Source of the DNA: Bacillota bacterium | GTDB taxonomy: Bacteria; Bacillota; Sulfobacillia; RBS10-35; JAJYVM01 | DNA: 30,943 nucleotides | Assembly (NCBI GenBank): GCA_021792015.1 | Contig: JAJYVM010000001.1 | Span: 1 to 30,943, forward strand | Direction of reading: 5' to 3' | Shown here: piece by piece, positions 15,458-30,943 of the stretch | How positions within the stretch are numbered: position 1 is the stretch's first letter | Layout of the letters: every line of letters begins with the position of its first letter | Translations under genes and position numbers: made by a program | Notes under the pieces: generated by a model | What the model was told of the DNA's origin: nothing | Databases searched by the model: none | Seen by the model: the letters and a program-made list of their open reading frames with translations, nothing else

Positions 15458-15482
15458 GTGGGTCTAGGTGGGGCAAAGTGGG
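15458..15482 (+). promoter_or_regulatory. MraZ-binding direct repeats
   Basis: GTGGG at 15458, 15468 and 15478 (10-bp period) just upstream of mraZ, the arrangement known for MraZ autorepression. Confidence 0.8.
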
Positions 15483-15494
15483 GGATCCGGCCGG

Positions 15495-15926
15495 GTGTTC
15501 ATGGGTGAGTACCGCCATGCGTTGGACGAGAAGGGGCGCCTCACCCTTCCCGCCCGCCTGCGCGAGGGGCTGGGCCAGCCCTTCGTGGCCACGCGCGGCT
15601 TTGAGAACTGTGTCTTCCTCTATCCCCAGCCCGAGTGGGAGGCGCTGGAGGCCCGCATCCGCGCGCTGCCCTTCAACCAGGCCAACGCGCGCGCCTTCGC
15701 CCGCATCTTCTTCGCCGGCGCCGCCGAGTGCCGCCCCGACGGGCAGGGCAGGGTACTGCTGCCGCCCGCGCTGCGCGAGTACGCGCGCATCGCGCGCGAG
15801 ACCGTGATTCTCGGCGTCAGCGGCCGCGTGGAGGTCTGGGCGGAGGCGGAATGGGACCGGTATGCCGCCGCGGCCGCCAACGACTACGCGGCTTTGGCCG
15901 AGCAGCTGCAGGGGCTGGGCGAGTGA
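15495..15926 (+). CDS. mraZ: Division/cell wall cluster transcriptional regulator MraZ
   Basis: (M)[37 protein letters not shown]; 143 aa from GTG 15495. Confidence 0.96.
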
Positions 15927-16807
15927 GCGTGCACGTGCCGGTGCTGGGCGCCGAGGTGCTGCAGTGGCTGCAGCCCCGTGCGGGTGGCGTCTACGTCGAC
16001 GCCACGGTCGGCTACGGCGGCCATGCGGCGGCGATTTTGGCAGCCGCCCCGGGCGGCCGCCTGATCGGCCTCGACCGTGACGAGCGGGCGCTGGCGGGTG
16101 CCCGCGAGCGCCTGGCGGCCTTCGGCGCGCGCGCCCACCTCGTCCACGCCGACTTCGCCCAGCTGGGCGAGGTTCTGGCCGGTCAGCCGGCCGACGGCAT
16201 CCTGTTCGACGTCGGCGTCAGCTCCGCTCAGCTGGACGATCCTGTGCGTGGCTTCTCCTTCCGGGCGGACGCGCCGCTCGACATGCGCATGGACCCCAGC
16301 CGGGGCCAGACGGCGGCCGATCTCGTCAACACGCTGCCTGGGCCCGAGCTGGCCGAGATCCTCCTGCGGTACGGGGAGGAGCGCTGGGCGGCCCGGATCG
16401 CGGACTTCGTGGTCCAGGCCCGACGCCGGCGACCCATCGCCACGACCGGGGACCTCGTGGAGATCATCCGCGCGGCCGTGCGCGCCGGCGCCCGCCGGGG
16501 GCCCGGCCACCCGGCCCGGCGGACCTTTCAGGCCCTGCGCATCGCTGTCAACGGGGAGCTGGATGCCCTGCGGGCCGGCCTGGCCGCCGCGGCGGCCGCC
16601 CTCGCCCCCCTCGGCCGCGTCGTCGTCATCGCATTCCACTCCCTGGAGGATCGCATCGTGAAGACAACCTTTCGCGGACTCGGCCAGCACGGCTTCGCCG
16701 TCCTGACCAAAAAGCCCGTCCGGCCCACCGCCGCTGAGACCGCGGCCAATCCGCGCGCGCGGAGCGCCCGGCTGCGCGCCCTGGCCAGGGAGGGGATCGG
16801 AGCATGA
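15923..16807 (+). CDS. rsmH: 16S rRNA m4C1402 methyltransferase
   Basis: [27 protein letters not shown]...[45 protein letters not shown]. Confidence 0.96.
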
Positions 16808-17280
16808 CGGCCACACGCGGTGCCGTGGCGCCCCAGCTGGAGCGGCGCCCGCAGCCCGGCCCGGCGCGAGCCCCCTCGACCCGGCTCAGCTTGGCCACCT
16901 TCTCCGAGGGCCTGACGGCGATCCTGATCTGCGGCGGGCTGCTGCTCGGCGTGGCGTCCGCTGCCGCGGCCATCACGCAGGCCGGCTACAACCTCGACCA
17001 CGCCAAGCACGTCCTTGCCACCACCCAGGACGCCGAGCAGCGCCTCGCCGTCCAGGTGGCCTCCCTGCAGGCGCCCGCACGGCTGGCCGCCATCGCCACC
17101 TCGCGCCTCGGCATGTCCCTACCCACCTCCTTCGACACGGTCCAGCCGCAGCCCGTCCAGAACCCGCCGGCGCCACGGCCGCACGCCGCCGTGATCACCA
17201 TCGCCGCCGTCAGCCCCGGGCCGGGATCTCTCACCGCACTATGGGACAGCCTTCGCACGTTTGTTGCGCACATGCGATAA
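16804..17280 (+). CDS. ftsL: Cell division protein FtsL
   Basis: Position after rsmH, one TM, coiled coil ending L..P.RL..IA...LGM..P. Confidence 0.8.
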
Positions 17281-17345
17281 CCAGGGAAGGGAAGCCCTCG
17301 CGGATCGCATAACAATGGACGGTGCCCACCCGGCCCCCGGAGGCA

Positions 17346-17564
17346 TGGATGCCGGAGGCCATGCGGGATGCATTCTGGATGCCGGAGGCCATGCGGGATG
17401 CATTCTGGATGCCGGCGGCCATGCGGGATGCATTCTGGACGCCGGAGGCTACGCGGGATGCATTATGGATGGCGGCAGCCATGCCGGTGCGTTGTGGATG
17501 GCGGCAGCCATGCCGGTGCGTTGTGGACGCCGGAGGGCGCGCGGATGCATTCTGGACGCCGGAG
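17346..17564. repeat. Tandem array of 29-30-bp units (TGGATGCCGGAGGCCATGCGGGATGCATTC), seven units plus a partial
   Basis: Units start at 17346, 17376, 17406, 17436 (30 bp), then 17466, 17495, 17524 (29 bp), partial at 17553. Units 1 and 2 are identical, as are 5 and 6. No spacers. Confidence 0.95.
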
Positions 17565-17693
17565 CCCGCCCGCGACGGGGTGGACCGGGGCCATGCGTGC
17601 ATGCCGGTGACCCCACGGCGACCGCGGGACCGCGTAAGGTGGGTGGGGGCGCCCTTGGCCAGCCGGGCCCGGGCGCGTGGGGAGGCAACCTTG

Positions 17694-19205
17694 ATGGAGC
17701 GAGGTGGCACGGCCGGATCGTGGGCCCTGCGCGACCTCCTGGCGGGGGTAGGCGGCGCTGAGGTGCGGGGCGATCCGGGTTGCCGCGTCGCGGGCCTGGC
17801 GTACGATTCGCGCCGGGTGGCCCCGGGGGATCTTTTCGCCACATGGGTGGGCTTTGAGAAGGACGGGCACGCGTTCGTGCGCGAGGCCGTGGCGGCCGGA
17901 GCCGTCGCCTGCCTGGTCGAGCGCCGGGGTGTCGTCCCGGCGGACGCGGTCGAGGTCTACGTGCAGGACAGCCGGCGCGCCCTGTCGCGGGTCGCGGCCA
18001 ACTTTTACGGCCACCCCGCGCGGTCGCTGCACGTCATCGGCGTGACCGGGACGAAGGGCAAGACCACCACCACCTACCTGTGCCGCGAGGTGCTGGGCAC
18101 CATCGCGCCCGTCGGGCTGATCGGCACGGTGCAGACGATCGTGGGCGGACAGCCGCGGGTCAGCCGGGGTGCGCACCTGACCACGCCGGAGGCGCCTGAC
18201 CTGCACGCGGCCTTCGCCGACATGGTGGCCGCCGGTGACCGCTACTGTGTGATGGAGGCCTCCTCGCTCGCCCTCGCCCGCCATCGGGTGGACGACTGCA
18301 TGTTCCGCACGGCGGTCTTCACCAACCTCACCCATGACCACATCGGCGGGCGGGAGCACCCGGACCTGCAGAGCTACCAGGCGGCCAAGGAGCGGCTGTT
18401 CCGGCTGTGCGATCCCACCGGCCACGCCGTGGTCAACGCCGACGATCCGTCGTCCGAGCTGATGACCCGGGCCACGTCGGCCGCGGTCGTCACATACGGG
18501 TTGCGGCCGGGGGCCGACGTTCGTGCCGAGGGCATCGAGATCGACCCGGCCGGCGCCTCGTTCGTGCTGGTGCACCACGGCGTGCGCCATCCCGTGCGCC
18601 TGCACCTGACGGGCCGCTTCAACGTGTACAACGCCCTCGCGGCGTTCGCCGTCGGCATGACCGCCGGCGTCGATCCCGCCGCGGCGGTTGCCGCCCTCGA
18701 GCGTGTGAGCGGGGTGCCCGGCCGCTTCCAGGTGGTGCCGAGCCTGCTGCCGTTCAGCGTCATCGTGGACTACGCCCATACGCCGGACAGCCTGCAGAAC
18801 GTGCTGGGCACGGCGCGCGAGTTCGCCCGCGGGCGCGTGATCGCCGTGTTCGGCGCGGGCGGCGACCGGGACCGCGGCAAGCGCCCGCGCATGGGGGCCA
18901 TCGCCGCCGCCTCCGCCGACGTCGTGATCCTGACCTCCGACAACCCTCGCAGCGAGGACCCCGAGGCGATCCTGGCCGACATCGCGGCCGGGATCGTGCA
19001 GGCCCCGGCCGGCGGCATGCGCATGATCGCCGACCGGCGCCACGCCATCGAGACGGCGATCGCCGAGGCGCGCGAGGGGGACGTGATCATCATCGCCGGC
19101 AAGGGGCACGAGACCTACCAGATCTTCTCCGACCGCACCATCGACTTCGACGACCGCGAGGTGGCCGCGCAGGCCCTGCGCGCCCGCTCCGAGGACCGGG
19201 CCTGA
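17694..19205 (+). CDS. murE: UDP-MurNAc-Ala-Glu:meso-DAP ligase
   Basis: YDSRRV, VTGTKGKTTT, LTTPEA, VMEASS, FTNLTHDH, GRFQ, VDYAHTPDSL, GGDRDRGKRP.MG, TSDNPR (DAP-type), IAGKGHETYQ. GGAGG SD at 17681-17685. Confidence 0.96.
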   Translation: MERGGTAGSWALRDLLAGVGGAEVRGDPGCRVAGLAYDSRRVAPGDLFATWVGFEKDGHAFVREAVAAGAVACLVERRGVVPADAVEVYVQDSRRALSRVAANFYGHPARSLHVIGVTGTKGKTTTTYLCREVLGTIAPVGLIGTVQTIVGGQPRVSRGAHLTTPEAPDLHAAFADMVAAGDRYCVMEASSLALARHRVDDCMFRTAVFTNLTHDHIGGREHPDLQSYQAAKERLFRLCDPTGHAVVNADDPSSELMTRATSAAVVTYGLRPGADVRAEGIEIDPAGASFVLVHHGVRHPVRLHLTGRFNVYNALAAFAVGMTAGVDPAAAVAALERVSGVPGRFQVVPSLLPFSVIVDYAHTPDSLQNVLGTAREFARGRVIAVFGAGGDRDRGKRPRMGAIAAASADVVILTSDNPRSEDPEAILADIAAGIVQAPAGGMRMIADRRHAIETAIAEAREGDVIIIAGKGHETYQIFSDRTIDFDDREVAAQALRARSEDRA

Positions 19206-19206
19206 C

Positions 19207-20613
19207 GTGCGCCTGAGCTTGGGCGAGTTGGCGCATCTCACCTCCGGCCGGGTGGCCGCCGGCGATCCATTCCAGCTCGTGCTGGGCATGGCCACCGACA
19301 GCCGGCGCGTGCGTGCGGGCGACCTGTTCTGCGCCCTGCCCGGCGAGCGCACCGACGGTCACCGCTTCATCGGCGCGGCCCTGGCGGCCGGTGCAGTGGG
19401 CGCCCTGGCGGCGGAGACGCCGCCCGACCTACCGGCCGGCAAGGCGCTGCTGCTGGTGGACGACCCCGTGAAGGCCCTCGGCCGGGCGGCGGCCACGTGG
19501 CTGAGCCGGCTGCGCCCGCGCCTGCGGGTGATCGGGGTGACGGGCAGCGTCGGCAAGACGACGACCCGGACGCTCGCCGTGGCGGCGGCCGCGGCCCGCC
19601 TGCGGGTCCTGGAGCCGCCCGGCAACTACAACACGGAGATCGGGCTGCCCATCGCCTGCCTGGAGGCGACCCCGGAGCACGATGTGGCGATTCTCGAGCT
19701 GGCCATGCGCGGCGCCGGCCAGATCGCCCGCCTGGCGGAGATCTGCCGGCCCGAGATCGGTGCGCTGACCCTGATCGGGCCGAGCCACATCGAGGTCCTC
19801 GGCAGCATGGAGGCCGTGGCCGCGGCCAAGGCCGAGCTGCTGGAGGCCCTGCCCGCGGACGGCCTGGCCGTGCTCAACGCGGACGACCCCTGGCAGCGCC
19901 GCATTGCGGCCAAGTCGCCGGCGCCGGTGCGGTGGTATGGGTGCGGTCCGGACGCCGACATCCAGGCCAGCGACGTGGTGGTGCTGCCGGGCGCGGGCAC
20001 CCGCTTCCGGTTGCGCCTGCCCGGGCAGGCTCCTGTCGAGGTGTGCCTGCGCCTGCCGGGCCGCCACCAGGTGGGCAACGCCATGGCCGCGGCCGGGGCG
20101 GTGGCGGCCCTCGGGCTGCCGGCCGAGGCCATCGCGCAGGGCCTGGCCCGGGCCGAGCCGCCGCACGACCGCCTGGAGATCCACCATGTGGGCCCGGTCA
20201 CGCTGATCAGCGACGTGTATAACGCGAGCCCGGCCTCCTCCGCCGCGGCGCTCGATGTCCTCGCGCAGGTATCATCGCCGGGCCGTGCCCTCATCCTGTT
20301 CGGCGACATGCTGGAGCTCGGCGAGGTGACGGAGCCGGGGCACCGCGAGGTCGGCGGCGCGGTGGCCCGCTCGCCGGCGCGGGCGCTCGCCACCGTCGGC
20401 AGATCGAGCGCGACCTGGCTGCGGCCGGCCTCCGGCTTGCCGGGTCCCGACTGCGACGAGCCCGAGGCGGCCGCGGACTGGGCCCTCCGTGAGGTGCGTC
20501 CCGGGGATACGGTTCTGGTCAAGGGGTCCCGCGGCATGGAGATGGAGCGGGCCCTGGAACGCCTGCGGCGGGGGCTGGCGGCGGCCACCGGCGGCCGCGT
20601 GGGCCCCGGATGA
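19207..20613 (+). CDS. murF: UDP-MurNAc-tripeptide:D-Ala-D-Ala ligase
   Basis: TDSRRV, GERTDGH, GVTGSVGKTTT, GNYNTEIGLP, ELAMR, D.YNASP.S, GDMLELG, VLVKGSRGM.ME. Confidence 0.95.
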   Translation: MRLSLGELAHLTSGRVAAGDPFQLVLGMATDSRRVRAGDLFCALPGERTDGHRFIGAALAAGAVGALAAETPPDLPAGKALLLVDDPVKALGRAAATWLSRLRPRLRVIGVTGSVGKTTTRTLAVAAAAARLRVLEPPGNYNTEIGLPIACLEATPEHDVAILELAMRGAGQIARLAEICRPEIGALTLIGPSHIEVLGSMEAVAAAKAELLEALPADGLAVLNADDPWQRRIAAKSPAPVRWYGCGPDADIQASDVVVLPGAGTRFRLRLPGQAPVEVCLRLPGRHQVGNAMAAAGAVAALGLPAEAIAQGLARAEPPHDRLEIHHVGPVTLISDVYNASPASSAAALDVLAQVSSPGRALILFGDMLELGEVTEPGHREVGGAVARSPARALATVGRSSATWLRPASGLPGPDCDEPEAAADWALREVRPGDTVLVKGSRGMEMERALERLRRGLAAATGGRVGPG

Positions 20614-20660
20614 AGCGCGGACGCCGCCTGCCAGCCGCGCGCGTCGCGGGCCACGTCGCC

Positions 20661-20744
20661 GCCACGGGCAGAGGCCGTGCCGCGGCGGGCGGAAGCCGCG
20701 TTGCCACGGGCAGAGGCCGTGCCGCGGCGGGCGGAAGCCGCGTT
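20661..20744. repeat. Perfect 42-bp tandem duplication with two hairpins per unit
   Basis: GCCACGGGCAGAGGCCGTGCCGCGGCGGGCGGAAGCCGCGTT at 20661 and 20703; internal CACGG/CCGTG and CGCGGC/GCCGCG inverted repeats. Confidence 0.95.
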
Positions 20745-20788
20745 GCGCGAATGGCAGCGACATGCCGTGGGTCGAGGGGGGCGGGCGG

Positions 20789-21781
20789 ATGACGGCGGCC
20801 CTCGCCGGGCAGGCGCTGCTTGCGGGGATCGCCGCGGCCATCGCCGCGGCACTCATCGTGCCAGCCGGGATCCCCTGGCTCCGCGGACTCGGCTTTCGCC
20901 AGCAGGTGCGCGAGCAGGGACCGCAGAGCCACCTCGCCAAGGCCGGCACGCCGACCATGGGGGGCCTGCTCTTTCTGCCGGTCGGCGCGCTCGCGGCCAT
21001 CGCCACGTTTCCCTTCGACCCCGCCCTGTACGTGGCGCTGGCGATCTCTCTCGGCCACGGCGCCCTCGGCTTCGTCGACGACTACCGCAAGACGGCGCTG
21101 GGGCGGCCGCTCGGGCTCAAGGCGCGCGAGAAGCTGGTCGGCCAGACCCTTCTCGGGCTCATTCTGGCGCTGGCGGCCCTCGGGCCGCTGCACGCGGGCG
21201 GCGCGGTGTCCGTGCCCTTCACGGGCCTGATGATCACGCCGGCGCCGGTGCTCTTCGTCGTCTTCGTCGTGCTGGTGGTGATCGCCACCACGAACGCCAC
21301 CAACCTGACCGACGGCGCCGACGGGCTGCTGGCCACCACCGCGCTGCCGCCGCTCGCCGCCTTCGCCCTGCTGGCCCTGCTCCAGGGACAGGGCGGGGCC
21401 GCGGCCGTCCTGCTAGGCTTGGCCGGTGCCCTGCTGGGCTTTCTCCGCGTCAATCGCCACCCGGCCAAGGTCATCATGGGTGATACGGGCTCCATGGCCA
21501 TCGGCGGCGCCCTGGCGGCCGTCGCGGTGCTGACGCACGCGGAACTTTGGCTGATCTGGATCGGCGGCCTGTTCGTCCTCGAGGACCTCTCCGTGATGGT
21601 GCAGGTGGCCTACTTCCGCCGCACGGGGCGGCGGGTGCTGCGCATGTCGCCCCTGCACCACCACTTCGAGCTGGGCGGGTGGAGCGAGCCGACCCTCGTG
21701 AGCCGCTTCGCGCTCGCCAGCCTGCTGCTCGCGGGCACCGGGCTGCTGGCGGCCCTCGCCCAGGGGGTCGGCCTGCGTTGA
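20789..21781 (+). CDS. mraY: Phospho-MurNAc-pentapeptide translocase
   Basis: QVREQGP.SH..K.GTPTMGG, GFVDDY, NATNLTDGADG, N.HPAKVIMGDTGS, MSPLHHHFE. GAGGGGG SD before ATG 20789. Confidence 0.96.
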   Translation: MTAALAGQALLAGIAAAIAAALIVPAGIPWLRGLGFRQQVREQGPQSHLAKAGTPTMGGLLFLPVGALAAIATFPFDPALYVALAISLGHGALGFVDDYRKTALGRPLGLKAREKLVGQTLLGLILALAALGPLHAGGAVSVPFTGLMITPAPVLFVVFVVLVVIATTNATNLTDGADGLLATTALPPLAAFALLALLQGQGGAAAVLLGLAGALLGFLRVNRHPAKVIMGDTGSMAIGGALAAVAVLTHAELWLIWIGGLFVLEDLSVMVQVAYFRRTGRRVLRMSPLHHHFELGGWSEPTLVSRFALASLLLAGTGLLAALAQGVGLR

Positions 21782-23427
21782 GCGAGCGCGTCGGCCCCGC
21801 AGGGGAAGGTCGCGGTGGCCGGGACCGGGGCTGGGGTGCCGGTTCGCCGGGTCCTGCGCGCGGTCCCGCGGATGGCGCCGCCGAAGGTCCCGCGCGGGGC
21901 GGGAGCGCCGGGCGCTCGGGCGGCGATGCGGACCGCCGTCCCGATCGCGGGGGGGCCATGGGCCGTGACGCTCGCCCAGCCGGCGCGCCCTCCGGCGAGG
22001 CAGGCGGCAGCCGCACCGGTGCCGCCTCGCGCCTGCGTCCCGACGCGCGGCCTCCGGCCGCGGCCGATGACGACTTCCTGGCTTCCGCGGTCCCGTCGGG
22101 CCTCTCCCGGCCACGGCGCGCTCCTGCGGCAGACCCCATGTCGCCGTACGCGGGCCTGCGCGGCGGGGACAGCGCCGACCGCGTGCGCCCCACCCGTGCC
22201 GCCTACGACCTGGACGGCGAAGCCGGGACCGGGCTCGGGGTCCGCGCGGGCAGGCCCGCCCGACCCGAGACCGAGCCGGAGACCGCCTCGCGCTGGCCCG
22301 TCCGCCCCGTCCGCCCCGGCCGCCCCGCGGGCGTGACCCGGCAGGCGCCGGACTACCTTGTGCTGCTCGTCGTCGCCGCGCTGGTCGCCATCGGCATGGT
22401 GATGGTGTACTCATCCTCCTCCGTCGACGGCGCCGTCAACTACCACGACCCCGCGTACTTCCTCAAGCGCCAGCTCGCCGGCCTGGTGGTCGGCGGGCTC
22501 GCCCTGCTCTTTTGCATGAACTGGCCGTACTGGAACTGGCGCCGCTTCGCCCCGGCGATGCTGGTCGTGACGGTGGTCATGCTGTTTCTGGTGCTGGTGC
22601 CGCATGTCGGCATCCAGGTCCTCGGCGCCCGCCGCTGGCTCGGCTACCACAGCCTGCGCCTGCAGCCGTCGGAGATCGCCAAGCTCTCGCTGATCGTGTT
22701 CTTCGCCGACTGGCTGGCGCGCGCCGGCCCCCGCCTGCAGAACTGGCGCACCGGCGTGCTGCCCTTTCTGGTGATGATCGGCGTCATCTTCGGCCTGATC
22801 CTGGCCGAGCCCGACCTCGGCACGGCCGCCGCCATCACGGGCACCTCGCTGATCATGCTCTTTCTGGCCGGCGTGCCCATCCTGCACCTGGCGGCGACGG
22901 CCCTTGCCGGCGTGCCCGTGCTCGCGTACGCCATCCTGGGATCGTCGTACCGGCGCGCCCGCCTGTTCTCCTTTCTGAACCCGCAGGCCCACCCCCTGAG
23001 CAGCGGGTACCACATCATGCAGGCCCTGTATGCCCTTGGCTCGGGCGGCCTCTTCGGCCTCGGCCTCGGCCTCAGCCGCCAGAAGTACTTCTACCTGCCC
23101 GAGCGCCACACTGACTTCATCTTCGCGATTCTGGGCGAGGAGCTGGGCCTGGTCGGCGGCCTTTTGCTGCTGGGGCTCTTCCTGGTGCTGATCTGGCGCG
23201 GTTACCGCATCGCGGTCGCCGCGCCCGACACCTTCTCCTCGCTCCTGGCGTCCGGCGTGACGACGATGATCGCCGTGCAGGTGGTCATCAACATCGGCGT
23301 CGTGACGTCCGTGCTGCCGATCACCGGCATCACGCTGCCCTTCATCAGCTTCGGCAGCAGCTCGCTGGTCATCGTGCTGGCGGGAATGGGCATATTGTGC
23401 AACGTGTCGCGGTATGCGCGCCTATGA
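21778..23427 (+). CDS. ftsW: FtsW/SpoVE SEDS peptidoglycan glycosyltransferase with long low-complexity N-terminus
   Basis: MVYSSS, GARRWL, QPSEIAK, EPDLGT, YLPE.HTDFIF..LGEELG, GITLPFISFG.SS. Start uncertain: TTG 21778 overlaps the mraY stop; alternatives are 21958, 22138 and 22333. Confidence 0.92.
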   Translation: MSERVGPAGEGRGGRDRGWGAGSPGPARGPADGAAEGPARGGSAGRSGGDADRRPDRGGAMGRDARPAGAPSGEAGGSRTGAASRLRPDARPPAAADDDFLASAVPSGLSRPRRAPAADPMSPYAGLRGGDSADRVRPTRAAYDLDGEAGTGLGVRAGRPARPETEPETASRWPVRPVRPGRPAGVTRQAPDYLVLLVVAALVAIGMVMVYSSSSVDGAVNYHDPAYFLKRQLAGLVVGGLALLFCMNWPYWNWRRFAPAMLVVTVVMLFLVLVPHVGIQVLGARRWLGYHSLRLQPSEIAKLSLIVFFADWLARAGPRLQNWRTGVLPFLVMIGVIFGLILAEPDLGTAAAITGTSLIMLFLAGVPILHLAATALAGVPVLAYAILGSSYRRARLFSFLNPQAHPLSSGYHIMQALYALGSGGLFGLGLGLSRQKYFYLPERHTDFIFAILGEELGLVGGLLLLGLFLVLIWRGYRIAVAAPDTFSSLLASGVTTMIAVQVVINIGVVTSVLPITGITLPFISFGSSSLVIVLAGMGILCNVSRYARL

Positions 23428-24542
23428 CTGCGATTCGTGACCGGGGCCGCCTGCGCGGCCCCGGCGAGCATGGTTCCCGCTGGCGTCTGCTGGTGACGGG
23501 CGGGGGTACGGGCGGGCACATCTACCCGGCGCTGGCCGTCGCGGGGCGGGCCGCGGAGCGGTTTCCGCCGGTGGACGTCCTCTTCGTGGGCGCCGAGGGG
23601 GGCATGGAGGCCGCCATCGTGCCCAAGGAGGGCTTCAAGTTCGAGGGGGTCCCCGTCAGCGGGATCGTGCGCAAGCGGCCCGTCGAGATGCTGCGCGGGC
23701 TCGTGCGGCTGGGTGCGGCGGAGAGCCGCGCCCTGCGAATTGTGCGCCGCTTCCGGCCTGACGTCGTGGTCGCCACGGGCGGGTACGCCTCCGGACCCGT
23801 CGGGCTGGCCGCCTGGTTGCTGGGGGTGCCGCTGGTCCTGCAGGAGCAGAACGTGGTGCCCGGTGTGACGAACCGCCTGCTGAGCCGCGTCGCCGTCGGC
23901 GTCGCCGTGCCGCACGCGGAAGCCGCGAAGGCGCTTTCACGGCGGGCGAGGGTCTGGGTGGTGGGCAACCCGATCCGCCGCGAGCTCATGGGCGCCGAGC
24001 GCGCGGACGCGCGCCGGCGCCTCGACCTTCCCGGCGGTGGCCAGGTCGTGCTGATGGTGGCGGGAAGCCGCGGATCAGCGGTTTTCGTCAGGCTCCTGAA
24101 GGAGTGGGACGGGCCCGGGCTGCTGTATTTCGTGGCCGGGAGGGCGCACTACGCTGCGGCGAAGCCGCTTGCGCGCGACGGCGTGCGCGTGGTGCCGTAC
24201 CTGGAGGATGCCGGCCTCGGCTACGCGGCGGCCGATCTGGTGGTGTGCAGGGCCGGAGCGATCACCCTGGCGGAGCTGGCGGCGGTCGGAAAGCCGTCCA
24301 TTCTCATTCCATCCCCGCATGTCACCCACCACCACCAGGAGGCCAACGCGGCCGTGTTCGCGAAGGCCGGGGCGGCCGTCGTCCTGCCCGAGGCGGGCTT
24401 GGACGGGGTGCGTCTGGCCGCCGCGGTGCGGGAGCTGCTCGATGACCCGCAACGCCTGCGGCGGATGGCGGAGGCAGGCCTGCAGTTGGGACGGCCAGAC
24501 GCACTCGATGAATTGGTGGAGCGGGTCCATGCGCTGGTGTAG
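23424..24542 (+). CDS. murG: Undecaprenyl-PP-MurNAc-pentapeptide GlcNAc transferase
   Basis: GGGTGGHIYPA, GGYAS.P, EQN.VPG.TN, GNPIR, GSRG, RAGA.TLAEL, HQE.NA. ATGA overlap with ftsW. Confidence 0.96.
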   Translation: MTAIRDRGRLRGPGEHGSRWRLLVTGGGTGGHIYPALAVAGRAAERFPPVDVLFVGAEGGMEAAIVPKEGFKFEGVPVSGIVRKRPVEMLRGLVRLGAAESRALRIVRRFRPDVVVATGGYASGPVGLAAWLLGVPLVLQEQNVVPGVTNRLLSRVAVGVAVPHAEAAKALSRRARVWVVGNPIRRELMGAERADARRRLDLPGGGQVVLMVAGSRGSAVFVRLLKEWDGPGLLYFVAGRAHYAAAKPLARDGVRVVPYLEDAGLGYAAADLVVCRAGAITLAELAAVGKPSILIPSPHVTHHHQEANAAVFAKAGAAVVLPEAGLDGVRLAAAVRELLDDPQRLRRMAEAGLQLGRPDALDELVERVHALV

Positions 24543-24563
24543 CCGAGGGCGGGGAGTGCGGGT

Positions 24564-25931
24564 ATGAGCGGCGTCCACTTCGTGGGGATCGGCGGCGCGG
24601 GCATGAGCGCCTTAGCCCAGATCGCCCTGGCCCAGGGTCTCCGGGTCTCCGGCTCGGACCAGCGCACCTCGCCCGTGCTGGAGCACCTGCGCGCCCTTGG
24701 GGCGGAGGTGCGTGCCGGGCACGACGGGGCCCAGCTGCCCGCCCACGTCACCGAGGTTGTGGTCTCGACGGCCGTGCCGGCGGACAACCCCGAGGTCGCG
24801 GCGGCCAAGGCCCGCGGCCTGCCTGTCCTGCACCGCTCGGAGTGGCTGGCGCGTCTGATGGCGGGCGGGGACGGCATCGCCGTGGCGGGCAGCCACGGCA
24901 AGTCGACGACGACGGCCATGACGGCCCTCGGCCTGTTGGATGGCGGTCTGGACCCGACCGTGGTCATCGGCGCCGACCTGCCGGCCATCGGCGGCAACGC
25001 CCGCCTGGGCGACGGCCGGTATGTGGTGGCCGAGGCGGACGAGAGCGACGGCTCCTTCCTCCGCCTTGCGCCGCGGATCGCGGTGGTCACCAACGTCGAC
25101 GACGACCACCTCGACCACTACGGGAGCCGGCAGGCCCTGGCGGCGGCCTTTGCCACCTTCGTGAGCAGGCTGCCGGACGACGGCTGCGCGGTGCTCTGCG
25201 CCGACGACCCGGGGGCGGCTGCCCTGGCGGCGGCCTGCACGGCGCGAGTGCTGCGCTATGGTTTGGCGCCGGATGCCGACGTGGTGGCCGCCGACGTGCG
25301 GATCCAGGGCCTGCGGTCCCGCTTCCGGGTGCGGGTCGGCGGCGAGGACTTCGGCGAGTGCGTGCTTTCGGTGCCCGGCCGCCACAATGTCCGGAACGCC
25401 TTGGCGGCCGTGGCCGTCGGCGTGGCCCTCGGCCTTCACCCGCGCGCGGTCGCCCGCGCCCTCGCCCCGTTCGGCGGCGTCGGACGCCGCTTCGAGATCC
25501 TGAACCCCGGCGGCGACCCGCTGGTGGTGGACGACTACGCCCACCACCCCACGGAGATCGCGGCCACGCTGGCGGCGGCGCGCGCGGCCTGCCGCGGCCG
25601 CATCTACGTCGCCTTCCAGCCCCACCGCTACACGCGCACCCAGCTGCTGCTGCCGGCCTTCGGCTCCGCCTTCCAGGCAGCCGACCGGGTTCTGGTGCTG
25701 CCGATCTACGCCGCGGGCGAGGCGCCGCTGGCCGGTGTCGATGCCCGCCAGATCGTGGCGGCGGTGTGCGAGGCCGGCGGTCCCCCCGTGGAGTTCTGCG
25801 CCGACTTCGCCGCCGCGGAGGACCGGCTGCGCGCCTGGGCCGGCCCGGGCGACGTCGTGATGGTGATGGGCGCGGGCGATGTGCGCAGGCTGGGCGAGCA
25901 GATGGTGGCGGCCGCGTCTCCGACGCCGTAA
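24564..25931 (+). CDS. murC: UDP-MurNAc:L-alanine ligase
   Basis: HFVGIGGAGMS, GSD, VAGSHGKSTTT, EADESDGSFL, HNVRNA, GV.RRF, DDYAHHPTEI, FQPHRYTRT. Confidence 0.96.
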   Translation: MSGVHFVGIGGAGMSALAQIALAQGLRVSGSDQRTSPVLEHLRALGAEVRAGHDGAQLPAHVTEVVVSTAVPADNPEVAAAKARGLPVLHRSEWLARLMAGGDGIAVAGSHGKSTTTAMTALGLLDGGLDPTVVIGADLPAIGGNARLGDGRYVVAEADESDGSFLRLAPRIAVVTNVDDDHLDHYGSRQALAAAFATFVSRLPDDGCAVLCADDPGAAALAAACTARVLRYGLAPDADVVAADVRIQGLRSRFRVRVGGEDFGECVLSVPGRHNVRNALAAVAVGVALGLHPRAVARALAPFGGVGRRFEILNPGGDPLVVDDYAHHPTEIAATLAAARAACRGRIYVAFQPHRYTRTQLLLPAFGSAFQAADRVLVLPIYAAGEAPLAGVDARQIVAAVCEAGGPPVEFCADFAAAEDRLRAWAGPGDVVMVMGAGDVRRLGEQMVAAASPTP

Positions 25932-26031
25932 CCATGGGTCGTGAAGGCCACGCGGGGCGCCGTAACCATGGATGGCGAAGGCCATGCGGGACGCCGTAAC
26001 CATGGATGGCGAAGGCCATGCGGGACGCATT
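25924..26031. repeat. 34-bp tandem repeat x3 (CGCCGTAACCATGGATGGCGAAGGCCATGCGGGA), related to the 30-bp array
   Basis: Units at 25924 (diverged), 25958 and 25992 (identical). The murC stop TAA is part of unit 1. Confidence 0.93.
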
Positions 26032-26045
26032 GGGGAGGCCTCTCC

Positions 26046-26963
26046 GTGACCGACATCGCCGCCATCGCGGGCCAGCTGCGGCGCGACGAGCCTCTGGCCG
26101 GCCACACCACCCTGCGGATCGGGGGGCCAGCGGCCTGGTTCGTGCTGCCGGCCGACGAGGCCGCGCTGATCGCCGCCGTGACCTGGGCGCGCCAGGCGGG
26201 CGTGCCCTGCTGGCTCCTCGGCAACGGCAGCAACCTGCTGGTGCCGGATGAAGGCGTGGCCGGCTGCGTCGTGGCCACCGGCACGGCCTGCCGCTGGGTG
26301 CGGTGGGAGGCGGGGGGCATCGAGGTCGGCGCCGGCTACCCCGTGCAGCGGCTGCTGAACGAGGCTGGCCGCCATGGCCTCTCGGGGCTGGAGGGCCTGT
26401 CCGGCGTGCCCGGGACGGTTGGGGGCGCCGTGGTGATGAACGCGGGCACGGCCGCGGGCGAGACGTCGGGCGTCGTGGTCTCCGCGCGGGTCCTTCTGCC
26501 CACGGGCGAGGTCGCCGAGTGGGGCCCGGCGGATCTGGGCTTTGGCTACCGCAGCAGCCGCCTGCAGGCCCCTGGCCACGTGGTCCTCTCCGCACGCCTG
26601 CGCCTTCTGCCCGGCGACCCGGAGGCCATCCGCCGCGACCTCGCCGCCCGGGCCCGCCGCCGGCGGGACACCCAGCCGCTGGAGCTGCCGAGCGCCGGCA
26701 GCATCTGGACCAACCCGCCCGGCGATCACGCCGGCCGCCTGGTGGAGGCCGCGGCGTGCAAGGGCCTGCGCGTGGGCGATGCCATGGTCTCGCCCAAACA
26801 CGCCAACTTCATCGTCAACGTCGGCGCCGCCAGGGCCGCGGACGTCCTGGCCGTGATGCGAACCGTGCGCGCTCGCGTGCGCGAGCGCTTCGCCATCGTC
26901 CTGGAGCCGGAGATCCGCTGGATGCTGGGCCAGGAGGACCTTCACCACCGCCTGGACGCCTGA
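26046..26963 (+). CDS. murB: UDP-N-acetylenolpyruvoylglucosamine reductase
   Basis: HTT.RIGGPA, GNGSNLL, PGTVGGA..MNAG, QPL..PSAGS..NP, S.KHANF.VN, LE.E. GGAGG SD at 26034-26038 before GTG 26046. Confidence 0.95.
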   Translation: MTDIAAIAGQLRRDEPLAGHTTLRIGGPAAWFVLPADEAALIAAVTWARQAGVPCWLLGNGSNLLVPDEGVAGCVVATGTACRWVRWEAGGIEVGAGYPVQRLLNEAGRHGLSGLEGLSGVPGTVGGAVVMNAGTAAGETSGVVVSARVLLPTGEVAEWGPADLGFGYRSSRLQAPGHVVLSARLRLLPGDPEAIRRDLAARARRRRDTQPLELPSAGSIWTNPPGDHAGRLVEAAACKGLRVGDAMVSPKHANFIVNVGAARAADVLAVMRTVRARVRERFAIVLEPEIRWMLGQEDLHHRLDA

Positions 26964-26985
26964 AGGCGGCCGCACGGGCGCAGCG

Positions 26986-27002
26986 TGTCGAACGATTCGA
27001 CG
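26986..27002. promoter_or_regulatory. Inverted pair of Spo0A-type boxes
   Basis: TGTCGAA (exact 0A box) at 26986-26992 and TTCGACG (CGTCGAA on the minus strand, 6/7) at 26996-27002, intergenic. Confidence 0.45.
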
Positions 27003-27094
27003 AAAGTACCCTCACATCGCCAGCGGCCGCCGCGAAGGGCTACCCATGGGGCGACGGTTGTCCTCAATTCGCCGTGCCCCCGGGCGGTGTCGCA

Positions 27095-29062
27095 GTGGCG
27101 GGAAGCAAGCGCGGCTTCTGGGCGCGACTGGTCGACTGGTTCACGATCGAGGTCGAGGAGCCGGTGCTCGACGAGCTCGACCAGGATGGTCGGACGGCCT
27201 GGGAGGAGGCGGCGGCAGCCGCCGAGTACCTGCCGCCGGCGGCGTCGATCGCGCCTCCGGTGCCGGCGGGCCCGCCGCCCGCGGCGTCTCCGGCCCCGCG
27301 GCCGGCCGCCGGGCGCAGGCGGGGCCTCGTCGAGCGGGCCTTCGATTGGATGGCGGCCGAGGATCCGGAGCCCGCCGGCCAGCGCGGGCACGCGGCCGCA
27401 ACGGCGGGCAGGGTGGCGGCGGCACCGGCGCGAGACCGCCGGGCGCCCGCGGACACCGCCGTCGCCGCCTTCGCCCTCATGCTGGGCTCGCTGGTCGAGC
27501 TCGGAAGCGTGGTGCGCGCGCACGCGGCCAGCGTGTTGCACCCGTCACGGCGCCCCCGCGCCGCGGGTCGCGCCTCGGCATCGGGCCGGCTGCGGGAAGG
27601 CTGGCTCGCCGGGACGGGGGCGATCGGCTCGGCGATCGCGGGCACGGCGGCGGTCCGCACACAACGCCCGCCGGCAGCGCCCCGGCAGGCTCCCACCCGC
27701 AGGTCCGTCGCGGCCCCGCCGGCCGCCTCCCGGCGGTTTGTGGGCGGCCGCCTGGTGGTCTTGCTGGCGGCGCTGGCCGTGGCCGGGCTGGGGGTCCGCC
27801 TGGCCGTGGGCGGGCACGCGGTGGCGGACGGGCCCGCCGTCCCAACGGCGCGGGACATCGCCGTCGCGCGGGCCCAGGTCGCGGCGGCCGCCTCCGCCAG
27901 CGCGGCCCAGGACGCCCAGGCGGCCGGGGGGAGGATCCGGACGCAGCTCGCCACCGCCCAGCGGGCGGCGCAGCAGGTGGCCAGCCTGGCCACGCCGGCC
28001 CTTGCGCGCCAGCCGTCCGCCCAAGACCCGTCGGGGCCCCTGGCCACCCTGCAGTTGCTGCAGTCCCAGGCCGCGGCAACCGTCACCGCGATCGGCCACG
28101 ACGTGAGCACCGCCGAGGGCGGGGTCGCGGCGGCCGCCTCCGACCCGTTGGCCGCCAAGCAGGCGGCTGCAGCGGCCGCCACGGCGAAGGCGGCCCTCGC
28201 CGCCGCCCAGGGGGGAGCCAGCCAGATCGCGGCCCTGGTGCCCCCAGCCCAGCGCGCGGCCGCGACCTGGCGGCAGATTCATACGGCGCCGCCGGGGACG
28301 CTCGGCGTCACCACCCAGGATCCGCCCGCCGGCTGGGGCGTGCGGGGGTGTGAGGTGCGCACGGTGGCGCCGGGCGGGGCCGGGCAGCGGCTGGGGCTGG
28401 TCGGGGCCGCCGGGTTCCTCCACCCCGTGGGCGACGTGATCACCCTCGTGCGCGACACGACGGACGGCAACGCCTCCTGGCCGGTCGCGAGCTGCGCCGC
28501 CCTGCAGGCGGCCATGGCCCAGAGCCGGGCCGGCGACCGCATCACGGTCTCGTACGAGCAGCGGGCGACCGTGGACCTTGTGCTGGGCTTCTGGCTCTCC
28601 CACACCGGCACGGTCGTACTCGGGCAGGGGGGCGCGGCCCAGAGCGTCTGCCCCGGCCCCCTGACGGGTCGCACGGGACCCGGCGGCACCGTGCCGCTCA
28701 CCGTCGCCGTCTCCGGACCCGCCGGCACGCGGCCGGGCGTCGCCGTCACCATCGACCCGGCCGGGGGGATCAGCTACTTCCCCGACGCCCTGCTGCGTGC
28801 CCTGGGCTACCGGCCCTACCAGTCGGAGTCCGGCAGCGGCGTGCTGCCCGGCTCGAAGGCGACCGTCAACCTGTATAACGTGCCGGGGTCGTCCCTGACG
28901 GTTCAGGATCACGGGCAGGCGGTCCCGCTGGCCGACGGCATTCTGAGCGTGGTGGGCGTCCCGGGCGGGAGCGGCTCGGTGGTGGGGGCGGCCGTCCTCA
29001 GTCAGGGCGCCCAGCTCACCGTCAGCGGCGGGACATGGTCGCTGACACCGCCGTGCCACTGA
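27095..29062 (+). CDS. Bitopic membrane protein: duplicated amphipathic motif, TM, Ala/Gln coiled coil, PDZ-like and retropepsin-like domains
   Basis: TM about 27752-27814. PDZ-like LGV..G..V..V.PG...GL...GDVI..V...V.S...L.......GD.I.V.Y. C-terminal IDPAGGISYFP..LL..LG ... VVG..VL. Start uncertain (GTG 27074 or 27095); the upstream part of ORF 26303..29062 overlaps murB in another frame. Confidence 0.75.
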   Translation: MAGSKRGFWARLVDWFTIEVEEPVLDELDQDGRTAWEEAAAAAEYLPPAASIAPPVPAGPPPAASPAPRPAAGRRRGLVERAFDWMAAEDPEPAGQRGHAAATAGRVAAAPARDRRAPADTAVAAFALMLGSLVELGSVVRAHAASVLHPSRRPRAAGRASASGRLREGWLAGTGAIGSAIAGTAAVRTQRPPAAPRQAPTRRSVAAPPAASRRFVGGRLVVLLAALAVAGLGVRLAVGGHAVADGPAVPTARDIAVARAQVAAAASASAAQDAQAAGGRIRTQLATAQRAAQQVASLATPALARQPSAQDPSGPLATLQLLQSQAAATVTAIGHDVSTAEGGVAAAASDPLAAKQAAAAAATAKAALAAAQGGASQIAALVPPAQRAAATWRQIHTAPPGTLGVTTQDPPAGWGVRGCEVRTVAPGGAGQRLGLVGAAGFLHPVGDVITLVRDTTDGNASWPVASCAALQAAMAQSRAGDRITVSYEQRATVDLVLGFWLSHTGTVVLGQGGAAQSVCPGPLTGRTGPGGTVPLTVAVSGPAGTRPGVAVTIDPAGGISYFPDALLRALGYRPYQSESGSGVLPGSKATVNLYNVPGSSLTVQDHGQAVPLADGILSVVGVPGGSGSVVGAAVLSQGAQLTVSGGTWSLTPPCH

Positions 29063-29212
29063 ACGCATCGCGTACGGACAGAGCCCTCCCCAGCGGGCAT
29101 GCGGGCCCCTCGAGGCGGGCGGCGAGGTCGGCGAGCGCCTCGGATGCCGCGGCCGCGCGTCGAGCGCCGGAGCATGGACGGCCTTGCGGCGCGCAGTGGG
29201 CGAGGCGGCCGC

Positions 29213-30667
29213 CTACGGGCGGGCGCGCGCCTGCTCCCTGCCGCGCACGGCCGAGGTCACGAGGCCGATCACGGCCAGGGCCGCCGCCAGGGTGTACGAG
29301 GCGTGCAGTCCGCGGAGGAACGCGCCCTGGAACGACGGGGACGGCGCGGCGGCCGCCGCGCCGGGCGAAGCGCCCAGCTGGTTTCCACCCAGCCCTGAGG
29401 CATGCGCGAACAGGGCCGCGGTGAGGCCGATCCCTAGCGCCATGCCGAGGTAGCGCATCATCGCCAGCACCCCGCCGGCGATGCCGCGGCGGCGGCCCGG
29501 GGCGGCGCCCATGACCGCGCTGTTGTTGGGGGCGCTGAACAGGCCGTTGCCGGCGCCGAACAGGGCCAGCTCGCCGGCGATACGCAGGGGGGAATCACCC
29601 ATGCCGAGGCGGGCGATCAAGAGCAGCGCCGCGATCTGGACCGCCATGCCGCTGACGGCCAGCAGGCGGCTGCCGATGCGGTCGGAGAGGCGCCCGGCCA
29701 GGGGGGCCGTGAGCATCATCATCAGCGGGAAGGCGGTCAACACCAGGCCCGTCTGCTCCGGGCTCATCCGGCGCAGGGTCTCCAGGTAGAACGGCATCAG
29801 GAACGTGACGGCGAACTGGGCCAGGAAATTGAGCAGCGTGGCCGTGCTGGCGGCCGCGAACACCCGGTGGCGGAAGAGGTTCAGGTCCAGCATGGGGAAG
29901 CGGTAGCGGAGCTCGCGGAGGATGAAGGCGAACAGGCCGCCGGCGCCCAGGGCGAAGAGCGCCACCACGGGCGGGGTGCCGAAGCCGTTGGTCGGGCCGA
30001 GGGAGAGCGCCGAGAGGATGCCGAGGAACGCCACGGCGGCCAGGGCGGCGCCGGGGATGTCGAACGGCTCGGCGACGCGCGTCCTGCTGGCGGGCAGGAT
30101 GCGGGACGACCAGATCACGCCGATGATGCCCACCGGCACGTTGACGAAGAAGATCCACGGCCAGCCGAGGGAGCCGGTCAGAAGCCCGCCGAGGGGCGGG
30201 CCCAGGGCGAGGCCGAGGGCGACCACGACGCCGTTCAGCCCGAGGGCCTGCCCGAGCTCGGAGGCCGGGAAGGCCTCCGTGATGATGCCGGGGCCGACCG
30301 ACAGCAGCATGCCACCGCCGATGGCCTGCAGGATGCGCCAGGCGACCAGCAGGCCCAGGGCGTGCGAAAGGCCGCAGAGCAGGGAGCCGGCGCTGAACAG
30401 GGCCATGCCGACGAGGTAGATGCGGCGCAGGCCGATCAGGTCGCCGAGGCGGCCCCAGGTGAGGACGGTGGTGCCGACCACCAGCAGGTAGGCCGTCGCC
30501 ACCCACTCGACCGACGTCAGGTCGGCCCGCAGCGAGGCCGACATGGCGGGGAGGGCGACGTTGATGATGCTGCCGTCGAGCGGGGTCATCAGCGAGCCGA
30601 AGGCGACGGCGGTCAGGATCCACCAGCGTCGCGGATCACCGGCTTGGGCGGAGCGCGCTGCCGTCAT
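29213..30667 (-). CDS. MFS drug:H+ antiporter (DHA2/EmrB-QacA type, 14 TMS)
   Basis: LDGSIINVALP, WV.TAYLL, WGRLGDLIG.RR, LGPPLGG.L, W.WIFFVNVPVG, LDL.LF, AGRLSDRIG.R. Confidence 0.93.
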   Translation of the reverse strand: MTAARSAQAGDPRRWWILTAVAFGSLMTPLDGSIINVALPAMSASLRADLTSVEWVATAYLLVVGTTVLTWGRLGDLIGLRRIYLVGMALFSAGSLLCGLSHALGLLVAWRILQAIGGGMLLSVGPGIITEAFPASELGQALGLNGVVVALGLALGPPLGGLLTGSLGWPWIFFVNVPVGIIGVIWSSRILPASRTRVAEPFDIPGAALAAVAFLGILSALSLGPTNGFGTPPVVALFALGAGGLFAFILRELRYRFPMLDLNLFRHRVFAAASTATLLNFLAQFAVTFLMPFYLETLRRMSPEQTGLVLTAFPLMMMLTAPLAGRLSDRIGSRLLAVSGMAVQIAALLLIARLGMGDSPLRIAGELALFGAGNGLFSAPNNSAVMGAAPGRRRGIAGGVLAMMRYLGMALGIGLTAALFAHASGLGGNQLGASPGAAAAAPSPSFQGAFLRGLHASYTLAAALAVIGLVTSAVRGREQARARP

Positions 30668-30726
30668 GGCCCCATTTTACAGGAGGGGGCACCCCCACAG
30701 AGCAACCCAGGGATCTGGGGGAGGCG

Positions 30727-30733
30727 TGTCGAA
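30727..30733 (+). promoter_or_regulatory. Spo0A-type box in the MFS/SIMPL divergent intergenic region
   Basis: TGTCGAA within GCGTGTCGAAC, the same 11-mer as at 26983-26993. Confidence 0.35.
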
Positions 30734-30796
30734 CTTGGAGGGACCTTGCAGGGTAGCCACCCCATGGTAGTCCCCCGGAAGGCGGTCGATGACGAC

Positions 30797-30943
30797 ATGG
30801 TGCGCAGATGGGCGGCGGCGCTCACGGTACTGGCCGTGATGGCCATGCAGGCGGGGGCGTGGGCGGCGAGCAGCAGCTCGACCCCGTCCCTACCCCTTGA
30901 GCTCAGTGGAGCCATCTCGGTGAGCGGCCGTGGGACGGTAGAT
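30797..30943 (+). CDS. Secreted protein, probably SIMPL (DUF541) domain; truncated by the window end
   Basis: MVRRWAAALTVLAVMAMQAGAWA signal peptide followed by AISVSGRGTVD, resembling the SIMPL first strand. Not in the ORF track because there is no stop. Confidence 0.55.
   Translation, partial: MVRRWAAALTVLAVMAMQAGAWAASSSSTPSLPLELSGAISVSGRGTVD

Follow-up and report, generated by a model that had tools for sequence, protein, structure and literature searches.

A predicted membrane-anchored PDZ-retropepsin protein with a degenerate active site is encoded after murB in a high-GC Bacillota bacterium

Introduction

In Bacillus, murB is followed by divIB. In the stretch of 30,943 nucleotides analysed here (contig JAJYVM010000001.1, called the window below), murB is followed instead by a gene for a protein of 655 residues (P0002; positions 27095 to 29062, plus strand), and the question is whether this protein takes the part of DivIB or another one at the cell envelope. 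The source is a metagenome-assembled genome (MAG; G000) in 534 contigs, and the host is a high-GC member of the Bacillota and not a Bacillus, the GC content being 75% for the window and 70–80% throughout, a composition that is not Bacillus-like. An initial annotation, made from the DNA letters alone, had proposed an undescribed trans-membrane signalling or scaffold component linked to division or sporulation. The analysis presented below leads us to conclude that the protein probably acts at the cell envelope as the non-cutting partner of a live sister protease, and not as a replacement for DivIB.

Fold of the C-terminal region

A model of the C-terminal 265 residues, built on an alignment that included 47 relatives, had a mean pLDDT of 91. 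Residues 396–513 (28280 to 28633, plus strand), a somewhat longer segment than the PDZ-like domain initially placed at about 28290–28565, were found to adopt an HtrA-type PDZ fold containing Cys419 and Cys467. The best structural match was Rv0983 of Mycobacterium tuberculosis (1y8t; VIA Z 14.4, rmsd 1.3 Å over 89 residues, 28% identity), with scores of 13.2 to 3qo6 and 11.7 to 4yo1, and with Deg1, DegQ, HhoA, HtrA, CtpB and DegS next at Z 10–13. The carboxylate-binding loop, G401-x-L403-G, is conserved. Residues 514–655 (28634 to 29059, plus strand), which carry Cys519 and Cys654 and end in W-x-L-T-P-P-C, matched the retropepsin APRc from Rickettsia (5c9b; VIA Z 12.5, rmsd 2.9 Å over 123 residues; Foldseek E 4e-4 to 5c9f), followed by the Ddi1, HTLV, HIV, EIAV and RSV proteases at Z 8–10, with many of the retroviral enzymes scoring 8–9. 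Structure prediction, which the initial annotation had named as the check on its two C-terminal domains, thus returned both folds. The four Cys residues that it had placed outside the cytoplasm are invariant in the family, and they may be paired in disulfides.

Sequence profiles gave far less. The protein had no Pfam (E ≤ 0.01) or NCBIfam match, PDZ and protease models included, and a sequence-profile search of the Protein Data Bank (PDB) yielded only weak matches to PDZ and HIV-protease motifs at E ≥ 0.01. The Pfam models POTRA_1 and FtsQ_DivIB_C, the SepF core (PF04472) and Peptidase_U4 of SpoIIGA did not match it either.

Degenerate active site and selection

Retropepsins are obligate dimers in which each subunit contributes one Asp, as restated for RloA of Pseudomonas (PMC11957051). 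At the corresponding position of the alignment, where the family has D-T-G-G/A, the protein carries the degenerate tetrad D554-P-A-G (28754 to 28765, plus strand), and its orthologues have EPAG, DPAA, RPGG and QPQG. All other family members with a complete retropepsin domain keep D-T/S-G, with the consensus (I/L)-L-D-T-G-G. Degeneration in the clade lacking D-T-G extends to the second conserved motif, L-G-P-D-(I/V)-L, and the family motif A-T-G-(T/E)-L has become A-D-G-x-L there. As retropepsin dimers use one Asp per subunit, a copy without D-T-G cannot supply its half of the active site. Judged by these motifs, the murB-linked clade is one of pseudoproteases, in agreement with the pseudo-retropepsin of the initial annotation.

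Between the genomes G000 and G002, two members of the same genus, the DTG-less retropepsin domain showed a dN of 0.206 and a dN/dS of 0.33. For the same domain of the D-T-G-bearing paralogue described below, the respective values were 0.067 and 0.15. Constraint on the degenerate domain is relaxed and not gone, and the domain is under purifying selection.

Family and phylogeny

A word-based search of 5.8 billion proteins retrieved only four full-length relatives, and a separate word-based search with residues 1–396 yielded nothing outside the family. With the C-terminal 265 residues as query, 1.84 billion representative proteins were searched exhaustively by phmmer; 84 matched at E ≤ 1e-3, 25 of them at E ≤ 1e-30, and proteins bearing D-T-G were matched at E values from 1e-60 to 1e-30. 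The PDZ and retropepsin halves were also found separately. The family consists of secreted or membrane-anchored PDZ-retropepsin proteins, whose Pfam matches are to Asp_protease_2 (PF13650; 17 of the 47 relatives), gag-asp_proteas (13 of 47) and PDZ models (5 of 47). The domain combination, which had not been recognised initially, is therefore one that relatives carry in the form of both Pfam PDZ and Asp_protease_2 matches. As a lead, PDZ plus clan-AA architectures appear to be annotated already in other phyla, in Atlas clusters named 'Aspartyl protease/PDZ' (scores 0.77).

The distribution of the family is very narrow. Within 61 genomes (G000 and 60 related ones) it was detected in each of the three from the genus, in two of six from one further family belonging to the order, and in a few more from the class, and a scan of metagenomes recovered only contigs resembling the G001 species, with identical identity values. 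In a maximum-likelihood tree the five DTG-less sequences were monophyletic (support 100/99). Their sister was P0008 (97/96), a protein that combines DTGG with the cytoplasmic tail motif seen in the target, and P0013 and P0015 branched next (93/94). Such nesting fits a single loss of D-T-G after a duplication.

Genomic context of the two copies

Each of the three genomes of the genus contains two copies, the DTG-less one and a live paralogue that has DTGG and shares the tail motifs. The paralogue is about 680 residues long, has two tail motifs, and carries a low-complexity linker rich in Thr, Ala, Ser and Gly between its PDZ and retropepsin domains; it was located in G000 (contig C77, locus L028:2519-4576, minus strand) and G002 (contig C103, locus L032:8341-10380). 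In both cases it lies directly 3' of a GH3 gene of the NagZ type and anmK, on the same strand. The order murB, target gene, opposite-strand MFS transporter gene, read from the loci found in the genome searches, is conserved in G000, G001 and G002, and homologues from two genomes of the same order, G004 and G008, are not near murB. With the target after murB and the paralogue after nagZ-anmK, both copies are tied to peptidoglycan genes, those of precursor synthesis in the first case and of recycling in the second. The more distant G004 homologue (L027) is followed by an ECF sigma factor gene.

The division genes were found elsewhere. G000 encodes Spo0A, SpoIIGA, SepF, FtsQ, FtsA and FtsZ, and FtsQ (with POTRA_1), FtsA, FtsZ and SpoIIGA form a normal block on contig C499, with SpoIIGA proper at C499:8073-8900 and a further ORF after it that we take to be sigE. 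Searches immediately 3' of the target gene, in the window and in the contigs of G001 and G002, detected no ftsQ, ftsA or ftsZ, and in G002 the block does not lie within the 6 kb downstream of the gene. As a functional hint, the 'divIB position' was thus not supported. The sporulation link fared no better: the spacer between murB and the target gene contains one Spo0A-like TGNCGAA box (TGTCGAA at 26986), which is missing from the orthologous, otherwise unalignable spacer of G001, and the genome as a whole has 0.58 such boxes per kb, so that about 0.08 are expected by chance in 131 bp.

Cytoplasmic tail, membrane anchor and stalk

The N-terminal part of the protein matched the initial description of a long cytoplasmic tail with amphipathic motifs, one transmembrane (TM) helix and an Ala/Gln-rich helical stalk, as seen from models and conservation. 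Residues 1–217 are disordered, and in the full-length AlphaFold2 (AF2) model residues 1–245 appear essentially disordered, with short low-confidence helices at two amphipathic motifs. The first of these, M1a (residues 5–22, KRGFWARLVDWFTIEVEE; 27107 to 27160, plus strand), is found in all orthologues with W15, T17, E19 and V20 invariant, and has a hydrophobic moment of 0.49 against a mean of 0.24 for the protein. M1b (residues 75–92, RRGLVERAFDWMAAEDPE; 27317 to 27370, plus strand) is a second copy, with a short helix predicted at 79–86. The consensus is R-G-h-L-x-R-L-I-D-W-L-T-V-E-V-P-E, present twice in the target and one to three times per orthologue, and also in the live paralogues P0008 and P0013; within G000, a loose regular expression matched it only in the target and the live paralogue.

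The motif is similar to the N-terminus of SepF, whose residues 1–12 form a membrane-targeting amphipathic helix (PMC13507996). SepF proteins of the same genus and order begin with G-V-W-D-R-M-L-N-F-L-G-F-E-E (GVWDRMLNFLGFEEV in the genus), with an 11-residue hydrophobic moment of 0.49, equal to that of the target motif, and the pattern G-h-h-x-R-h-h-(D/N)-(W/F)-(L/F)-x-h-E-E in SepF of the genus matches the tail motif. As the SepF gene of G000 (C387:17035-17136, L035) is cut by the contig end, those of G001, G002, G004 and G008 were used for the comparison. The target differs from SepF in lacking the core domain, and in bearing the motif repeatedly on a protein anchored by a TM helix of its own. 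In the live paralogue, one of the two tail motifs is followed by YEYEYED, as in SepF of B. subtilis. Four other relatives, L026 (G008), L027 (G004), L029 (G002:C185) and L033 (G031), carry in place of the SepF-like motif another N-terminal cytoplasmic one, (M/V)P(L/I)x(L/I/V)(D/N)PE(D/E)(L/I)..(L/F)GP(E/K)AR.QI.

A single TM helix was assigned to residues 220–238 (27752 to 27808, plus strand), with a Kyte-Doolittle maximum of 2.50 at residue 220 and an AF2 helix at 218–231. A hydrophobic helix at residues 121–144 was rejected as a second TM segment on account of its absence from P0006 and P0007. The Arg-rich sequence N-terminal of the TM helix, the four invariant Cys and the signal-like hydrophobic N-termini of shorter relatives together place the C-terminal part outside the cytoplasm.

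The stalk (residues 252–396, about 145 residues; 27848 to 28282, plus strand) contains 36% Ala and 11% Gln and was modelled as three helices (252–298, 313–346 and 351–396) with pLDDT values of 95–98. The short loops suggest that these helices are packed antiparallel, and with lengths of 34–47 residues they may hold the PDZ domain some nanometres off the membrane. Between helices 1 and 2 lies the conserved loop LARQPSAQDPS (residues 303–313; 28001 to 28033, plus strand), in which L303, A304, R305, P307, S308, A309, D311 and P312 are invariant among the orthologues and which is present too in stalk-bearing paralogues. A Foldseek search with the full-length model returned no structural match for the stalk.

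Gene and locus

That the reading frame is a real gene of about 655 codons directly after murB, as initially annotated, was borne out by the codon-position GC plot and by orthologues of 49–62% identity. From about 27100 to about 29060, in the frame of the ORF 26303-29062, GC3 is 0.87–1.00 and GC2 is low, a pattern indicative of a plus-strand gene; on this ground two minus-strand ORFs that overlap it (27064-28182 and 27545-29068) were rejected. The part of the long ORF 5' of 26963, where murB (MurB_C and FAD_binding_4) ends, overlaps murB and is non-coding in that frame. The GTG start at 27095 agrees with the annotated start of the closest orthologue, P0004 (MA..RG..ERLVDWFTIEV).

The gene is the last plus-strand one of a truncated dcw cluster, 131 bp 3' of murB, with the order mraZ, mraW, a small ORF, murE, murF, mraY, ftsW, murG, murC and murB on its 5' side and the opposite-strand MFS transporter gene on its 3' side. 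The cluster (window 15468-26963) contains no gene for a penicillin-binding protein (ftsI/spoVD) between the small ORF (16738-17280) and murE, and no murD between mraY and ftsW. The murE ORF (17322-19205) encodes 627 residues, of which the Mur ligase domains begin only at about residue 156, and its long N-terminal extension overlaps a repeat array marked in the initial annotation. At the 3' end of the window an open-ended plus-strand ORF (29867-30943, at least 359 residues) had no Pfam match.

Discussion

Bacterial retropepsin-like proteases have, to our knowledge, barely been studied, the first functional work being that on RloA of Pseudomonas. The target shares its predicted fold and extracytoplasmic location with APRc and with RloA (9g59, Z 7.1), both of the Asp_protease_2 type, at a sequence identity of only 9–12%. 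In contrast to them it lacks D-T/S-G, and its retropepsin fold is combined with a long cytoplasmic tail, a TM anchor, a stalk of three helices and a PDZ domain. In secreted bacterial retropepsins, which form dimers, the C-terminal tail is stapled by a disulfide (PMC11957051), and the Cys in the C-terminal tail of the target resembles that of the stapling disulfide in RloA. With HtrA/DegP/DegS, PepD (Rv0983) and CtpB the target has in common an HtrA-type PDZ domain joined to a protease fold outside the membrane. However, its partner domain is a degenerate aspartic fold of clan AA and not a serine protease, and the PDZ domain precedes it, unlike the order in those enzymes. The elements that appear new, on the sequences compared here, are the TM anchor, the SepF-like helices, the three-helix stalk with its conserved loop and the order of PDZ and protease fold, together with the splitting of a dead/live paralogue pair between two putative peptidoglycan operons.

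We consider it reasonably likely that the protein is a catalytically dead bitopic member of a small, lineage-specific family of extracytoplasmic PDZ-retropepsin proteins, serving peptidoglycan or envelope homeostasis. As D-T-G has been lost, yet the fold, the binding loop of the PDZ domain, the Cys residues and the position in a putative wall-synthesis operon have been kept, a non-catalytic peptide-binding module is the most economical reading. The tail helices would rest against the cytoplasmic side of the membrane like the N-terminus of SepF, on the strength of their resemblance to its membrane-targeting helix, and the PDZ domain and the crippled substrate cleft would bind envelope peptides or protein tails without cutting them. 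Since retropepsins act as dimers, the dead copy could form a non-catalytic homodimeric scaffold, or pair with the live paralogue and modulate it. This activity would serve peptidoglycan or envelope homeostasis and not divisome assembly of the FtsQ/DivIB kind. RloA mutants of Pseudomonas show cell-shape defects, possibly from a peptidoglycan imbalance (PMC11957051), which provides a precedent for the envelope theme, parallel to the peptidoglycan gene context of the target.

Several observations weigh against this proposal. Asp554 is kept in the target species and in the orthologue P0005, so that some residual activity is conceivable. The tail motifs have low AF2 confidence and a hydrophobic moment that is only moderate. 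A scan of 26800-29400, the 131-bp gap after murB included, detected no promoter or terminator. Moreover, the MAG is 85.6% complete, the linkage to murB is limited to one genus, and the surroundings of the paralogue could be read in two genomes only.

A scaffold of division or sporulation that replaces DivIB/FtsQ or works with it at the septum or forespore would account for the position after murB, for the bitopic topology that the target shares with FtsQ/DivIB, for tail motifs like the helix of SepF, for the presence of Spo0A and SpoIIGA in the genome and for the TGTCGAA box upstream at 26986. We regard it as unlikely, as the ectodomain is unrelated, with neither a POTRA domain nor an FtsQ fold, and the genuine FtsQ, FtsA, FtsZ and SpoIIGA are encoded together on C499. 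In addition, synteny with murB is confined to a single genus while homologues of the same order lie elsewhere, the 0A-like box has no counterpart in the spacer of G001 and about 0.08 such boxes are expected by chance in 131 bp, and the sister paralogue accompanies peptidoglycan-recycling genes and not division genes. The case for a role in division or sporulation is thus weak, and a link to the cell wall has the better support. Of the function initially proposed, the notion of a non-catalytic trans-membrane scaffold or regulator was supported, and its tie to division or sporulation was not; the place of the live paralogue after nagZ-anmK points to peptidoglycan metabolism instead.

Retention of Asp554, the intact fold in a high-confidence model and purifying selection on the retropepsin domain could also be expected of an aspartic protease that is still active through an atypical D-P-A-G site and is switched on by a PDZ ligand as in enzymes of the HtrA/CtpB type. 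This seems improbable to us, given that Thr-Gly is missing from every orthologue and the catalytic Asp gives way to Glu, Arg or Gln among them, that the second conserved motif, too, has degenerated, that non-synonymous substitutions have accumulated about three times as fast as in the live paralogue, and that the Pfam protease models that match 17 of the 47 relatives miss the target. The same loss of catalytic motifs and faster non-synonymous change, with the very narrow distribution of the family, might instead mark a duplicate in decay that no longer serves any function; such decay is very hard to reconcile with intact frames of 590–878 residues in five divergent sequences, with dN/dS values of 0.33–0.50, not near 1, with many invariant residues, the four Cys and the clade-specific A-D-G-x-L included, and with a post-murB position kept in three species.

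If the protein is a dead PDZ-retropepsin acting at the envelope, an elaboration that we offer as a long shot is that the dead and live copies form a heterodimeric, switchable envelope protease. Expression of the dead copy from the murB operon and of the live one with nagZ-anmK would then let the ratio of wall synthesis to turnover set the level of proteolysis, and the SepF-like helices would direct the pair to the curved septal membrane.

The reach of these findings is limited by the very narrow distribution of the protein, in one genus of uncultured high-GC Bacillota. Within it, the locus adds to the bacterial retropepsins a Bacillota branch anchored in the membrane and equipped with a PDZ domain on a long stalk, a naturally occurring pair of live and dead paralogues each linked to a different peptidoglycan pathway, and what looks like a membrane helix of the SepF type reused on an integral membrane protein. 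If the two copies interact, they would represent a bacterial case in which a dimeric aspartic protease is regulated by a pseudoprotease.

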